Part shown: piece after piece, positions 6,756 to 55,700 of the stretch
Layout of the letters: every line of letters starts with the position of its first letter
How positions within the stretch are numbered: position 1 is the first letter of the stretch
Notes under the pieces: generated by a model
Databases searched by the model: none
What the model was told of the DNA's origin: nothing
Seen by the model: the letters and a program-made list of their open reading frames with translations, nothing else
Translations under genes and position numbers: made by a program
From: SAR86 cluster bacterium SAR86E
Lineage (GTDB): Bacteria > Pseudomonadota > Gammaproteobacteria > Magnimaribacterales > D2472
NCBI GenBank assembly: GCA_000307935.1
Contig: AMWX01000008.1
Coordinates: forward strand, 93,215-157,214
Reading direction: 5' to 3'
Length of the DNA: 64,000 nucleotides

Positions 6756-8849
6756 GTGGAAGAAAATAATTTAAATACTCAATCCGTAGAGTTTGAATAC
6801 GGTAACAAAACTGTAAAAATTGAAACTGGTAAAGTTGCTAGACAAGCTACATCCAGTATTATTGTAACAATTGATAATCTTGTAGTGCTCACTACAATGG
6901 TTGCAAGAAAGGAAGCTGATCCTAGAAAAGATTTCTTTCCTCTTGCTGTTTTTTATCAAGAAAAATTTTATGCTGCTGGCAAGATTCCTGGTGGCTACTT
7001 TAAAAGGGAGGCAAGGCCAACAGAGCAAGAAACATTAACTTCAAGATTAATTGATCGACCAATCAGACCGCTGTTTCCTGAAGATTTCAAAAATGAAATT
7101 CAAATATTTTGTACAGTTCTATCTGCTGATAAGAATATCAATCCTGACATTGCTTCACTGATTGGTGCATCTGCAGCTCTTTCAATTTCTGGGGTACCTT
7201 TTCAAGGACCTCTGGGTGCTGCTCGTGTTGGTTTTATTGATAGTAACTATGTTTTGAATCCATCGCCACAAGAGCTAGAGGAATCTATGTTAGATATGGT
7301 GGTAGCCGGAACAGAGGATGCTGTTCTCATGGTTGAATCTGAAGCAAGTGAGTTAAGTGAAGATTTAATGCTTGGGTCTGTTTTGTATGGACATCAAGAG
7401 ATGCAGAAAGTTATTAAAGCCTGTACTGATCTGCGAGCAAAAGTAAATCCTACTCCATGGGAATTTTCAGCCGATGAATTAACTGCTGAATATAAATTAA
7501 ATATTTCAGAACTATATACTGATGAAATTGCGAGCGCTTTTAAAATTGCAAATAAATCTGATCGCGGAGATGCGATAAATGCAATCAGAGAAAAAATTAA
7601 TGATGCTAATGAAGAATTAGATGATATCGAAAGAGGCAAGTTAATGAATGCATTTAAATCAGTGGAAAAGGATGTTGTCAGAAAAAGTATTCTTTCCAAT
7701 GAGCCCAGAATTGATGGTAGAGATCTTGATACGGTCAGGCCTATATTTGTTGAAACAAATATTTTGCCAAGTGTTCATGGATCTTCTTTGTTTACCCGAG
7801 GCGAAACTCAAGCATTAGTTGCTGCTACTCTTGGCTCCACTAGAGACGCACAAAGAATAGAAAGTTTAAATGGAGAAGAGTCTAATACATTCATGCTGCA
7901 CTATAATTTTCCAGCATACAGTGTTGGAGAAATTGGCATGCCTTTGGGACCAAAAAGAAGAGAAATTGGCCATGGAAATCTAGCAAAACGTGCAATCAAA
8001 GCAGTCCTTCCTAATTCTGAGGATTTTGGTTATACATTGAGGGTAGTATCAGAGATTACAGAATCTAATGGATCAAGCTCCATGGCATCTGTATGTGGTA
8101 CCTCCTTATCTTTAATGGATGCAGGCGTCCCAATTTCTAATCCTGTTGCTGGAATTGCTATGGGTTTAATCAAAGAGGAAAACGAATTTGCTGTCCTTAC
8201 TGATATTCTGGGTGATGAGGATCATCTTGGTGACATGGACTTTAAGGTTGCTGGAACCAAAGAAGGTGTCACTGCTTTGCAAATGGATATTAAGGTCCAA
8301 GGCATAACAGCAGAGATAATGGAGTCAGCATTAGAAAAAGCAAAAAATGCAAGAATGCATATTCTTGAAAAAATGAATGATGTTATTTCAGCTCCAAAAG
8401 AGCTTTCTGATAATACCCCAGCCATGAAAAAAATAACTGTTCACCAAGATAAGATCAAAGAGATCATTGGTAAAGGTGGGGCTGTAATTAAAGGAATGCA
8501 AGCTGATACAGGAGCATCTGTAGATGTAAATGATGATGGTGTAGTCACAATTTTTGGTGAGACTCAATCCATAATGAAAGCAGCATTAGAAATCATTGAA
8601 GGTATTATCGAAGATCCAGAGCTTGATAAAGTTTATGAAGGAACTGTAGTAAAAATTGTCGATTTTGGAGCCTTTGTAAACATATTACCTGGCAAGGATG
8701 GCCTGCTTCATGTATCTGAAATCTCAGCTGAACGTGTAGAAAACGTCTCCGATGTTTTAAGTGAAGGAGATGTAATCAAAGTAAAACTTATAGGATTTGA
8801 CAGAGGGAAGATGAAGCTTTCAAAGAAAGTCTTGGAAAGCGATACTTAA
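6756..8849 (+). CDS. pnp: polyribonucleotide nucleotidyltransferase (PNPase)
   Basis: RLIDRPIRPLF, RREIGHG and DHLGDMDFKVAG motifs, KH and S1 domains. Confidence 0.98.
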   Translation: MEENNLNTQSVEFEYGNKTVKIETGKVARQATSSIIVTIDNLVVLTTMVARKEADPRKDFFPLAVFYQEKFYAAGKIPGGYFKREARPTEQETLTSRLIDRPIRPLFPEDFKNEIQIFCTVLSADKNINPDIASLIGASAALSISGVPFQGPLGAARVGFIDSNYVLNPSPQELEESMLDMVVAGTEDAVLMVESEASELSEDLMLGSVLYGHQEMQKVIKACTDLRAKVNPTPWEFSADELTAEYKLNISELYTDEIASAFKIANKSDRGDAINAIREKINDANEELDDIERGKLMNAFKSVEKDVVRKSILSNEPRIDGRDLDTVRPIFVETNILPSVHGSSLFTRGETQALVAATLGSTRDAQRIESLNGEESNTFMLHYNFPAYSVGEIGMPLGPKRREIGHGNLAKRAIKAVLPNSEDFGYTLRVVSEITESNGSSSMASVCGTSLSLMDAGVPISNPVAGIAMGLIKEENEFAVLTDILGDEDHLGDMDFKVAGTKEGVTALQMDIKVQGITAEIMESALEKAKNARMHILEKMNDVISAPKELSDNTPAMKKITVHQDKIKEIIGKGGAVIKGMQADTGASVDVNDDGVVTIFGETQSIMKAALEIIEGIIEDPELDKVYEGTVVKIVDFGAFVNILPGKDGLLHVSEISAERVENVSDVLSEGDVIKVKLIGFDRGKMKLSKKVLESDT

Positions 8850-8867
8850 TAAGCTAATCATCAGTAT

Positions 8868-8900
8868 ATAAAATACTTATAATTAAGTGTTTTATTTATT
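8868..8900 (+). terminator. putative AT-rich terminator after pnp
   Basis: ATAAAATACTTA-TAAT-TAAGTGTTTTAT inverted repeat followed by a T-rich tail. Confidence 0.5.
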
Positions 8901-9029
8901 CATGATATTCATAGTATAAACACTATGTTTTTGTCAAGTTTAGTAAATTTTAAATTCATATTTTCTTGAGCCTTAATTACTTTTGTGGTCTTATAGGTTA
9001 ACTAACCATGCAAACCATAGGGGGAAATT

Positions 9030-9248
9030 ATGGATAATGCATTTAGAATGTTAAGCGACCTAGTTAGTAACCTAACTAGTGTTATCGTTGGTATCTTAGG
9101 ACTTGGTATTGTTGGAAGCCTTGCTTTTGGCGATATGATGGGACTTGATGTGATAGGAAATATCACTAGCCTAGTTGAGTCTTTGGCATCTAGCGGTGTT
9201 GTAGGGCTACTTGTTTTAGCGGTTCTATACAGCTTAGTTAACAGATAA
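9030..9248 (+). CDS. small hydrophobic membrane protein of unknown function (72 aa)
   Basis: SD-like GGGGGA before ATG; two Gly-rich hydrophobic segments; followed by a strong hairpin. Confidence 0.85.
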   Translation: MDNAFRMLSDLVSNLTSVIVGILGLGIVGSLAFGDMMGLDVIGNITSLVESLASSGVVGLLVLAVLYSLVNR

Positions 9249-9263
9249 ACTTTGCTTTATCTT

Positions 9264-9300
9264 AATTAGAAAGGGTCATTAGACCCTTTCTAATTTCTTT
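9264..9300 (+). terminator. intrinsic terminator-like hairpin between the two small membrane genes
   Basis: Perfect 14-bp stem AATTAGAAAGGGTC-ATTA-GACCCTTTCTAATT followed by TCTTT. Confidence 0.8.
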
Positions 9301-9304
9301 AAAT

Positions 9305-9538
9305 ATGAATCTTAATAATTCACTTATTAAACTCACAGCCTTTTTTAATAAATTATTAAAACTTTTATTGCCTCTCGTAGCTGTTTCACTATTGTTAGGT
9401 ATTATTTTTGGACCAAGCACTCCATTTGTTGGAGATGTTTACAAGAATGTAACTGATATTTTGAACATGCTTGGGGAGGATGCTCTTTTAGCATTGGTAT
9501 CAATAATAATAATTTTGATATTTCTTAAAAAAGAGTAG
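9305..9538 (+). CDS. small membrane protein of unknown function (77 aa), probable paralog of 9030..9248
   Basis: Same architecture and shared FG...DVxxNxT motif. Confidence 0.78.
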   Translation: MNLNNSLIKLTAFFNKLLKLLLPLVAVSLLLGIIFGPSTPFVGDVYKNVTDILNMLGEDALLALVSIIIILIFLKKE

Positions 9539-9552
9539 AAAGTAGAGTTTCC

Positions 9553-9582
9553 TTTTTCAGTGAGACCTTACTTACTGAGAAA
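9553..9582 (+). terminator. hairpin between convergent small ORF and tRNA-Met
   Basis: TTTTTCAGTGAG-ACCTTA-CTTACTGAGAAA, 12 bp including two G-U pairs on the + strand. Confidence 0.45.
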
Positions 9583-9609
9583 ATTCTTTGTTTTAAAAAA
9601 TTCCAGAAG

Positions 9610-9686
9610 TGGTGGCTATGGGTGGAATTGAACCACCGACCCCAGCGTTATGAGTGCTGTGCTCTAACCATCTGAGCTACATAGCC
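9610..9686 (-). tRNA. elongator tRNA-Met(CAT)
   Basis: Reverse complement GGCTATGTAGCTCAGATGGTTAGAGCACAGCACTCATAACGCTGGGGTCGGTGGTTCAATTCCACCCATAGCCACCA; metT-like acceptor stem; follows ychF. Confidence 0.93.
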
Positions 9687-9720: not shown

Positions 9721-10806
9721 TCAAACATTAAATTTGAAGTGGATAATGTCTCCATCCATTACCAAATAATCCTTTCCTTCTAGCCTCAGCTTGCCTTCTT
9801 TTCTGGCACCAGATTCGCCGTTACAGGTCAAAAAATCTTCATATGAAATAACCTCAGCCTTAATAAAACCTCTTTCAAAGTCAGTATGAATAACGCCTGC
9901 AGCTTGGGGGGCCAAAGAGTTCTTACGAACAGTCCATGCTCTAGATTCTTTTGGTCCAGCGGTAAAATATGTTTCTAAATTAAGCAATTTATAACCTGCG
10001 AGTATTACCTTATTTAATACTGGCTCATCCATATCAAGTAACTCTAGATATTCTGCTTGCTCATCCTCCTCTAAAGTAGCTAGCTCATGCTCAACCTTTA
10101 TAACCGCAGGAATAATATTTATATCATTTTTTTTTGCATATTCTGCTAAATCACCCACTTTATTTCTAGACTCATCATCTGACATATTTGCAATTAAAAC
10201 CATTGGTTTGGTTGAAAGTAAATTCATACTCTCAATAAATTTAATTTCCTCACCATCAAAGCTATCTAAGTTTGGTAAATTTCCATTCTCCATAAGAGTT
10301 CTTAATGAATCAATAATTACTTTATGTTTCTTTGCTTCAGTATCTCCGGATCGTATTAATTTTTCTAGCTTCTGATCTCTTTTATCCAGAACTTCTAAAT
10401 CAGCAAAAATTAACTCAAGATTAATTGTTTCAACATCTTTAAGCGGCTCAATTACTCCATCTACGTGAACAACATTTTCATCATCAAAACATCTTACAAC
10501 ATGCAATAGTGCGTTCATTTCCCTGATATTAGATAAAAATGCATTCCCAAGACCCTCTCCTTTTGAAGCACCCTTTACCAGTCCAGCTATGTCAACAAAA
10601 CTCATTGTCGTAGGTATAACTTTATCTGATTGAACAATGCTATTTATTTTTTCTAATCTTTTATCTGGAACATTGACTATTCCTAGGTTAGGTTCAATTG
10701 TGCAAAAAGGAAAATTCTCAGCCGGAATAGCTGATTTAGTAATGGCATTAAACAATGTAGATTTTCCTACATTAGGCAACCCTAGAATCCCACACTTAAA
10801 ACCCAT
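9721..10806 (-). CDS. ychF: redox-regulated ATPase YchF
   Basis: GLPNVGKST, FPFCTIEPN and DIAGLVKGAS motifs; TGS domain. Confidence 0.98.
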   Translation of the reverse strand: MGFKCGILGLPNVGKSTLFNAITKSAIPAENFPFCTIEPNLGIVNVPDKRLEKINSIVQSDKVIPTTMSFVDIAGLVKGASKGEGLGNAFLSNIREMNALLHVVRCFDDENVVHVDGVIEPLKDVETINLELIFADLEVLDKRDQKLEKLIRSGDTEAKKHKVIIDSLRTLMENGNLPNLDSFDGEEIKFIESMNLLSTKPMVLIANMSDDESRNKVGDLAEYAKKNDINIIPAVIKVEHELATLEEDEQAEYLELLDMDEPVLNKVILAGYKLLNLETYFTAGPKESRAWTVRKNSLAPQAAGVIHTDFERGFIKAEVISYEDFLTCNGESGARKEGKLRLEGKDYLVMDGDIIHFKFNV

Positions 10807-54660: not shown

Positions 54661-55700
54661 TGAATTTTTTAATTTCTGCTGCTGGAACGGGAGGTCATGT
54701 TTTTCCTGCCTTGGAATTTAGCAAGGAGTGTATATCAAAAGATCATAAAGTAGTTTGGATTGGAACGAAATTTGGAATAGAAAATCAAATCATGCCCTCT
54801 AACATTAAATTTTTAAATATTCCTATGAGTGGATTTAGAGGAAAAAGCTTAGTTTTAAAATTCAATGCAATATTTAGGTTGATACAATCTGTTTGTAAAA
54901 GTATTTATTTTTTACAAAAAAATGAAATCGATTATGTGGTTTGCTTTGGTGGATATGTAACATTGCCAGTTGGAATATCTGCATGGGTTTGCAGAAAGCC
55001 TCTTTTTTTGCATGAACAAAACTCAGTTGTAGGAACATCAAACAGATTATTGAAAATTTTTGCAAAAAAAGTTTTCTTAGGCTTTGCCATCAATGAACCC
55101 ATGGAAAAAAAAATGATGCTGGTAGGAAATCCTATCAAGAAGTTTACTGGAGATGATAGTCTCAATTCTAACAATCAAAGTTTGAAAATATACATAACTG
55201 GTGGAAGCCAAGGCTCTGAGTATATCAATCATAATATTCCAAAAGCATTAAATGATTTGGAAATACCCTTAAAGGTTAAACATCAGACCGGAATAGGCAA
55301 AACTCATGGAATCCTTGACCTATATTCAAATAAAATCGATGCTGAGATTGTTGAGTTTTATGATTCTCCTCAAGACTCAATGCTGTGGTCAGATTTTATT
55401 ATTTCCAGAGCTGGAGCATTATCCCTTTCTGAGGCTATTAGTTTAAATAGAGGGTTATTAATGATTCCTCTGTTGATTTCGATTGATAATCATCAATTTT
55501 TAAATGCACAAAATATTGTTAAGCAAGGCATGGGTCTATTGCATGAAGAGACCGATTCCTTTGAACAGCTTTCTAACAAACTTAAAGAGATTATTGATCA
55601 AGAATTGCACTTAAAATGGGCAAAAAAAAATAATAACACTTATCATTTTAGTGCATCAGAGAAAATGTTAAATTCAATTCTAAAACTTGAAAAAAAATGA
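54660..55700 (+). CDS. murG: lipid II GlcNAc transferase MurG
   Basis: GTGGHVFP, HEQN, GGSQG and SRAGA motifs. Confidence 0.96.
   Translation: MNFLISAAGTGGHVFPALEFSKECISKDHKVVWIGTKFGIENQIMPSNIKFLNIPMSGFRGKSLVLKFNAIFRLIQSVCKSIYFLQKNEIDYVVCFGGYVTLPVGISAWVCRKPLFLHEQNSVVGTSNRLLKIFAKKVFLGFAINEPMEKKMMLVGNPIKKFTGDDSLNSNNQSLKIYITGGSQGSEYINHNIPKALNDLEIPLKVKHQTGIGKTHGILDLYSNKIDAEIVEFYDSPQDSMLWSDFIISRAGALSLSEAISLNRGLLMIPLLISIDNHQFLNAQNIVKQGMGLLHEETDSFEQLSNKLKEIIDQELHLKWAKKNNNTYHFSASEKMLNSILKLEKK

Follow-up and report, generated by a model that had tools for sequence, protein, structure and literature searches.

A two-gene cassette in the SAR86E genome

This work concerns a pair of small genes, ORF1 and ORF2 (open reading frames (ORFs) 1 and 2; gene 1 and gene 2 where their relatives are included), in the genome of SAR86 cluster bacterium SAR86E (assembly GCA_000307935.1). 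Few heterotrophs of surface seawater are as abundant as SAR86 bacteria. The analysis covered 64,000 nucleotides (nt) of contig AMWX01000008.1 (positions 93,215 to 157,214, forward strand), hereafter the window, to which all coordinates refer unless a contig is named. ORF1 (9030..9248, forward strand, 72 residues) is followed by an intercistronic stem-loop (9264..9295) and by ORF2 (9305..9538, forward strand, 77 residues), whose ATG lies 9 nt past the end of the stem. The arms of the inverted repeat, AATTAGAAAGGGTC and GACCCTTTCTAATT, form 14 perfect base pairs (bp) around the 4-nt loop ATTA, and the stem is followed by TCTTTAAAT. Upstream, a noncoding leader of 180 nt (8850..9029) contains the Shine-Dalgarno (SD) site GGGGGA (9019-9024), 5 nt ahead of the ORF1 ATG; ORF2 has no SD. 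Downstream, a terminator-like element (9553..9592), made up of a stem-loop at 9553-9582 (12 pairs, loop of 6) and the T-rich tail ATTCTTTGTT, closes the two-gene unit ahead of a convergent tRNA-Met gene. The region is a self-contained cassette (gene 1, hairpin, gene 2 and terminator) that encodes an unnamed protein family. A preliminary description of the window, made by inspecting the sequence, without database searches, had given coordinates for these features, about 180 nt of upstream space, the SD GGGGGA, the 14-bp hairpin and the 9-nt spacing to ORF2, all of them correctly.

At an expectation value (E) of ≤0.01, 228 database proteins matched ORF1 and 588 matched ORF2; the named relatives, all labelled 'hypothetical protein', came from SAR86 or Gammaproteobacteria. 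In the closest SAR86 family, the median pairwise ratio of nonsynonymous to synonymous substitution rates (dN/dS) was 0.128 for ORF1 (112 pairs) and 0.119 for ORF2 (150 pairs). Both ORFs are real genes under purifying selection, in agreement with the earlier proposal that the pair is functional.

AlphaFold2 modelled ORF1 as a helical hairpin (predicted local distance difference test (pLDDT), 82; helices 2-33, 41-54 and 57-70) and ORF2 as a plain helical hairpin (pLDDT, 89; helices 3-35 and 42-76). Both products are predicted to be antiparallel helical hairpins of about 75 residues in the cytoplasmic membrane, probably with both protein ends on the cytoplasmic side. The hydrophobic stretches of the two proteins are only 14-17 residues long, and conserved polar residues and motifs (T16, the FG(P) turn, DVxxN and LGxxG) occur in the amphipathic stretches next to them. 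The first helix of ORF1 is rich in glycine (GxxGxGxxG), and helix 1 of the relatives in Alphaproteobacteria and Betaproteobacteria (hereafter Alpha/Beta) carries an acidic residue. A basic n-region is lacking at the N-terminus (MDNAFRMLSD...), the inter-helix loop is acidic or neutral, and the C-terminal tail spans only 1-6 residues. ORF1 contains arginine at positions 6 and 72 only and no lysine; judging by this composition, trypsin would release a single hydrophobic peptide of 66 residues, which may explain why the protein has escaped notice in shotgun proteomics.

Some members from outside SAR86 (P0265, P0291, P0279 and P0328) have C-terminal extensions beyond the hairpin; some of these are short and very basic tails (KGTG..K.ARK..), the others charged segments of roughly 100 residues resembling a coiled coil. 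The public representatives P0260, P0263, P0276, P0323, P0327 and P0329 end in unrelated tails (...SYTHLTLPT..., ...LYTSPSPRD...), which resemble translated sequencing-adaptor sequence; they would then mark the ends of chimeric contigs.

The two genes are paralogues

Compared on their own, the two window proteins show no significant similarity (BLASTP of one against the other, E=22), and an hhalign comparison with close homologues only gave a probability of 15%. With alignments of diverse orthologues, gene 1 and gene 2 were aligned at 98.5% probability (E 1.7e-15, 69 columns). The ORF2 model (A2) matched distant ORF1 orthologues at E-values of 3e-13 to 1e-6, and the gene-1 and gene-2 alignments each matched the non-SAR86 family alignment (A4), with probabilities of 98.0% and 98.4%. 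Judged by these profile comparisons, ORF1 and ORF2 are true paralogues, as had been suspected from their shared motifs, although the window proteins alone reveal nothing of the relationship.

In a tree of the family, genes 1 and 2 of SAR86 and genes 1 and 2 of Alpha/Beta made up four separate monophyletic groups, with all 28 SAR86 gene-1 sequences falling into one clade (support 0.997). The gene-1 clades of SAR86 and Alpha/Beta and all seven phage copies in the tree formed a single clade, with a support of just 0.59. By hhalign score, SAR86 gene 2 was closer to Alpha/Beta gene 2 (74.6) than SAR86 gene 1 was (39.5). Given the four monophyletic groups, the grouping of gene-1 types with the phage copies and these scores, the tree and the profiles place the duplication before the spread of the cassette and before the split between SAR86 and Alpha/Beta, the key clade of this argument being weakly supported.

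An intercistronic hairpin conserved as structure

The intergenic sequence of the window folds with an energy of -20.6 kcal/mol (RNAfold), and a stem-loop was predicted in all 49 distinct intergenic sequences of the SAR86 order, at -16.6 to -28.3 kcal/mol. A gap-free stem of 9-14 bp was present in 41 of the 49, as against 3% of 980 shuffles, and the remaining eight had bulged G+C-rich stems. The 49 sequences contain 37 different 5' arms and every stem position shows several pair types, so what is conserved is the structure and not the sequence. The strong hairpin pointed out in the preliminary description is therefore kept across the order with differing stems. Downstream of gene 1 in the Alpha/Beta loci, the best fold of 40 nt had a median of -24.6, vs -17.75 in 112 control windows, 5% of which reached the observed median.

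The T-rich tail after the stem is variable, with at least four T among eight bases in 34 of the 49 sequences and at least five in 25 of them. The window stem has five G-C pairs and four T among the next eight bases, and a terminator scan left 9264-9295 uncalled because only four of the eight bases after the stem are T. We consider the stem-loop a putative terminator-like attenuator or 3' stabiliser, which would also cover the ribosome-landing region of ORF2.

Expression signals favour gene 1

The predicted duplex between the SD and the anti-SD has an energy of -9.3 kcal/mol for ORF1 and +2.0 kcal/mol for ORF2. The ORF1 site is stronger than those of all 58 long ORFs of the window (median -2.15, best -8.4). 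With 9 nt between the stem and the ATG, there is no room for a promoter of ORF2, so RNA for ORF2 must pass the hairpin; within ORF1 there is one promoter-like match, at 9112-9139, and it comes before the hairpin. The leader holds no convincing promoter, the scan giving a single 9-of-12 match at 8846-8874, and an Rfam search (E≤1) returned the tRNA alone above threshold and no RNA family in the leader. Ahead of the ATG, a run (...CCTA(A)TAGGGGGG...) that extends past the SD is kept across genera; it includes a small palindrome, CCTATAGG, with a possible regulatory role.

Two contigs from RNA libraries match the locus. One, of 314 nt, spans 9023-9336, and the other, of 557 nt, spans 9081-9637 with one mismatch and bridges ORF1, the hairpin and ORF2. 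The bridging contig is compatible with read-through and does not prove it, contig depths cannot rank the two genes, and stretches that the contigs leave uncovered carry no information. These signals suggest that ORF1 is made in large excess over ORF2. The preliminary description had proposed an abundant major subunit and a low-copy minor one made by read-through; this fits the SD energies and the 9-nt spacing, and it stands as far as such sequence signals carry. The arrangement of gene 1, hairpin and gene 2 would be a neat case from nature in which RNA structure sets a ratio.

Distribution of the cassette

A narrow ORF1 profile found a match in 116 of the 151 genomes of the SAR86 order, including the source genome, in 49 of 55 high-quality genomes and in 20 of the 21 genera. 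In all 50 SAR86-order loci, an ORF2 orthologue lies 35-82 nt downstream of the ORF1 orthologue. Five genomes lacking a narrow-profile match were searched with a broader profile (A3), which recovered the tandem pair in three of them; G003 (a single contig, 97% complete) gave a chance-level match only and G027 none.

In the window, pnp (6756-8849, forward strand) precedes the pair, and tRNA-Met(cat) (9610-9686, reverse strand) and ychF (9721-10806, reverse strand) lie beyond it. In four genomes of SAR86 family f3 (G027, G043, G003 and G091; loci L165-L168), pnp directly precedes tRNA-Met and ychF, at a distance of about 130 nt at most, and no cassette lies in between. The cassette is absent from the whole genomes of two of these, G003 and G027. 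Where f3 genomes hold the pair, it is located elsewhere, with neighbours that vary by genus. Outside the order, 400 genomes evenly drawn from the rest of the phylum (393 of high quality) gave a single match at E≤1e-5. The earlier argument that retention in a streamlined genome speaks for function is weakened by these losses and by this rarity.

A profile search of 1.84 billion representative proteins yielded 569 matches at E≤1e-3 and 124 at E≤1e-10; one listed match among them, a 926-residue tetratricopeptide repeat protein, is plainly a false positive. When ten matches were looked up among clusters, each came back as 'hypothetical protein', one from Planktomarina. Species-representative genomes contain 317 stretches coding for A4-type relatives, and the Alpha/Beta locus counts given here refer to the best 80 of these 317. 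All 80 come from metagenome-assembled genomes of Alpha- and Betaproteobacteria, plus one of Pirellulales; 68 hold the tandem pair and 11 a single copy, and one locus ends at the match. Their neighbours are housekeeping genes (purB, racemase, glutaredoxin and PurQ genes). Across lineages the surroundings change, from pnp and tRNA-Met to purB and glutaredoxin, or to genes for an AMP-binding enzyme, peptidase S49, CoA-transferase and malate dehydrogenase. The cassette moves as a unit.

Phage copies and NrdR boxes

Fourteen tailed-phage contigs of IMG/VR carry one copy each, always of the gene-1 type, and they fall into three groups. In T4-like contigs the gene lies among gp32, UvsX and UvsY; in the second group it lies between an esterase/lipase gene accompanied by a spanin-like gene and genes for primase and ribonucleotide reductase; and the third group comprises contigs with genes for tail fibre, 2-oxoglutarate-Fe(II) oxygenase and repair exonuclease. 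A tblastn search with ORF1 and the family member P0307 found no match in 50,697 GenBank phage records, and an IMG/VR scan with profile A1 gave 16 pattern matches, none of them confirmed.

PMC13584703 describes the operator of NrdR as two 16-bp boxes (C4 A6 A8 T9 T11 G13) with a linker of 15-16 bp. Under a fixed rule (all six positions and at least 10 of 16 overall), a box was found 5' of gene 1 in 25 of the 78 distinct Alpha/Beta upstream regions, at a density of 1.6 per kb, vs 0.03 per kb in the rest of these loci. A matrix that was itself trained on the 78 regions, and is biased for that reason, found a box in 43 of them. Two boxes were present in 14 Alpha/Beta upstream regions, and in 13 of them the spacing was 31-32 nt, which corresponds to the operator layout given in PMC13584703. 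As the upstream genes run in the same direction, the putative operator would serve the cassette.

In the SAR86 order, a box occurs in 3 of 49 upstream regions. Only one of the 49 loci (L044 in genome G016) has a near-perfect box upstream of the cassette, matching at 15 of 16 positions about 156 nt upstream of gene 1; a half box lies about 124 nt upstream (32 nt on), with a linker of 15 nt between the two. The SAR86E genome encodes nrdR (C12:206530-206970) and the large subunit of ribonucleotide reductase, recognised by a Pfam domain match at C8:207406-209016. The genome is rich in A+T, and a weak NrdR-like 16-mer at 55506-55521 of the window (12 of 16, with the six strong positions) is probably due to chance. 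None of the 14 phage loci has a box less than 400 nt from the gene, except for a match at 5 of 6 and 11 of 16 positions in three of them. The Alpha/Beta boxes and the phage contexts would tie the family to genes for DNA-precursor synthesis and replication in relatives, not demonstrably here.

The proteins belong to no characterised family

Pfam scans took in 72 family members, and PHROGs and PADLOC scans ten proteins each. No significant family was found in Pfam, NCBIfam or PHROGs for the members scanned, and the PADLOC anti-phage defence profiles gave none for any of the ten proteins at E≤1. The best match, to DUF4006 (E 5e-4 in 4 of 52 members), was far under its cut-off. A sequence search of the PDB with the A3 profile returned chance matches only, such as fused RecA constructs (E 0.004, no passing stretch). 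For ORF1, the nearest ESM Atlas clusters were unnamed or carried an automatic MotA/TolQ/ExbB label (scores 0.91-0.93), which are leads only; the first cluster was 60% viral among its 20 members of known phylum. P0307 had no usable match among the named clusters. In the literature on SAR86 small membrane proteins and, by title or abstract, on Pelagibacter small proteins, no description was found. The view that the ORFs belong to no characterised family held in Pfam, NCBIfam, PHROGs, PADLOC, the PDB and the fold searches. One of the best-conserved small operons of SAR86, with the strongest SD of a 64-kb core region and with copies in marine phages, thus belongs to no curated family.

Several known families of small membrane proteins share features with the pair. 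TatA and TatE resemble ORF2 in having a short hydrophobic helix that ends in F-G-P (...IIFGPS...) and is followed by an amphipathic helix; unlike them, the family has a second predicted membrane helix, an acidic or neutral loop and a plain AlphaFold2 hairpin, and PF02416 was absent from scans at E≤10 and E≤1. MscL (PF01741) and the ATPase c subunit (PF00137) resemble ORF1 in the N-terminal amphipathic stretch, the Gly-rich first helix, the two long antiparallel helices and a plausible ring; the family differs in having no conserved carboxylate in helix 2, and neither family was among the hmmscan matches. No such match exceeded Z 4.7 in the fold search, which says little about a fold this simple. 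Superinfection-immunity proteins, type I toxins and bacteriocins were dropped as readings in view of the lack of a profile match, the order-wide conservation and the strong expression signals.

A tentative model and its alternatives

In our proposal, a very strong ribosome-binding site drives translation of gene 1, and most transcripts would stop, or be stabilised, at the intercistronic stem-loop. Gene 2, with no promoter of its own and a start 9 nt past the stem, would be made from read-through RNA only, at a low rate. As the hydrophobic runs of 14-17 residues are too short to span the bilayer alone, the gene-1 protein may form a homo-oligomeric, polar-lined, pore- or channel-like assembly in the membrane, which the gene-2 paralogue may join in sub-stoichiometric amounts as a modulator. 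The single gene-1-type copies of phages would do the core job alone. This whole chain, with excess ORF1 in an oligomeric pore-like membrane assembly and ORF2 as a minor modulator, is the explanation we favour, and we regard it as possible rather than probable. A prediction of the ORF1-ORF2 complex scored 0.00 in two runs with no controls and is evidence neither way.

An intercistronic stem-loop or terminator determines the proportions in which subunits are made in the Rhodobacter pufBA-LM operon, in papA-papH of the pap genes and in gene VIII-gene III of Ff phages. The cassette would share with these a highly expressed first gene, a strong hairpin kept as structure, and a second gene reached by read-through. 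Unlike those operons, it consists of two paralogues of about 75 residues, with the hairpin between them in every lineage, and its ratio is a prediction from sequence signals. The family itself is unnamed; the design, in which a hairpin fixes the subunit ratio of small oligomeric membrane hairpins, belongs to a known kind.

Several observations weigh against this model or against its extension to DNA synthesis, discussed below. In fold comparisons, Foldseek returned no match in the PDB and a best E of 5.5 in BFVD, and the best hits of the wide VIA-align search were generic coiled coils (Z 4.7), though the hairpin fold is too simple for such searches to be informative. Gene 2 of SAR86 family f2 has its own SD, and the ratio may therefore vary by lineage. 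The loss of the cassette in four related genomes, together with its rarity in the phylum (1 of 400 genomes), means that its role is dispensable. An Rz-like spanin candidate lies near the gene in one phage group, which fits a holin. The leader at 8850-9029 contains no NrdR box, even when the demand is lowered to 5 of the 6 strong positions and 9 of all 16, and the genome has its best NrdR box (15 of 16, G000:C8:206139) just upstream of the ribonucleotide reductase gene, so a link to DNA synthesis may not apply in this genome.

Instead of forming an assembly of their own, the two proteins could serve as small accessory subunits in a bigger membrane complex encoded elsewhere, for instance a transporter, a translocon or a respiratory enzyme. 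Their size and hairpin fold resemble those of many small subunits, the cassette holds no partner gene and its neighbours differ by lineage. We nevertheless consider this unlikely, given that no conserved partner was found co-located and that the gene stands alone in three unrelated types of phage; moreover, the distribution is patchy, with loss in close relatives, whereas core complexes are universal.

Somewhat less likely still is that these are independent moron-like genes, each with its own terminator and with the hairpin serving just to end gene 1, whose products do not interact and are redundant or condition-specific. A terminator-like hairpin does follow each gene, phages carry one gene alone, and the SD of gene 2 in family f2 would suit separate expression, but the two types were already neighbours in this order before SAR86 and Alpha/Beta split and have remained so. 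The 9 nt between stem and ATG are also too short for a promoter, and the sole promoter-like match in ORF1 precedes the hairpin.

The NrdR boxes and the phage contexts raise a more specific possibility. The family may be a membrane component, so far unrecognised, that acts in the supply of DNA precursors or in the control of replication, in very abundant marine bacteria as well as in their phages. It would be an oligomeric channel or anchor of small size, under NrdR repression in Alpha/Beta, that couples the membrane to ribonucleotide reduction, with gene 2 as a built-in low-dose regulator. This is speculative and we give it only a small chance. If true, the coupling could act through metal or cofactor supply, or through tethering of the machinery for deoxynucleoside triphosphate synthesis and replication. 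The NrdR operators in relatives offer a testable handle on function.

A holin-like, phage-derived permeabilising module, domesticated for controlled release or lysis, would have gene 1 as the hole-former and gene 2 as an antiholin-like partner. Class II holins have two helices and a basic C-terminus, and those holins and the pinholins (e.g. S21 of phage 21) resemble the family in their length of about 70-80 residues, these two features, their phage-borne copies and, in some cases, a nearby spanin-like gene. In three of the 14 viral loci (L133, L134 and L137), the Rz-like spanin candidate (phrog_739, E 1.5e-8) and an esterase/lipase gene are located no more than about 1.3 kb from the gene. However, no holin family was recovered from Pfam or PHROGs, the nearest matches being Phage_holin_3_3 (E 0.3 in 1 of 52 members) and a holin phrog (E 0.2 in 1 of 10), and no endolysin was recognised beside the gene in the bacterial or phage loci examined, the bacterial ones also being free of spanin neighbours. 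The family further differs from class II holins in its very short C-terminal tail (1-6 residues), its chromosomal location, its order-wide conservation and its strong expression signals, and the strongest SD of the window would be unlikely for a lethal hole-former. The T4-like contigs, in addition, place the gene among replication genes. We therefore regard a holin as improbable.

Pilin-like or VirB2/TrbC-like filament subunits, as a major and a minor pilin, are the least credible reading, with almost no likelihood left, since the weak matches to TIGR03745, DUF2976 and TrbL (E 0.013-0.47) all fall far below curated cut-offs and neither a signal peptide, a basic loop nor neighbouring secretion genes were found. 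The TIGR03745 matches (E 0.12 and 0.47) scored 12.2 and 10.3 bits vs a cut-off of 52.5, PF11190 (E 0.18) scored 12.1 bits vs 28.2, and hhalign of A3 and A4 against an alignment of eight genomic DUF2976 members gave 0.8% and 1.3%. The genes around the cassette (pnp, tRNA-Met, ychF, purB and metabolic enzymes) include none for a type IV secretion system or an integrative and conjugative element in the contexts examined, and the pilin-like or coat-like filament that the preliminary description had listed among its options is unsupported on these grounds. The DUF2976/TIGR03745 and VirB2/TrbC proteins do resemble the family in their two hydrophobic helices, in a similar mature length and in occurring sometimes as tandem paralogues; DUF2976 proteins differ in carrying a signal peptide and a basic loop of the KFNEARxGK type (KFNEARQGKAEW), both of which the family lacks. 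Tandem paralogous pairs of DUF2976 genes were observed in two Gammaproteobacterial genomes, as L148/L153 in G198 and L150/L155 in G330.

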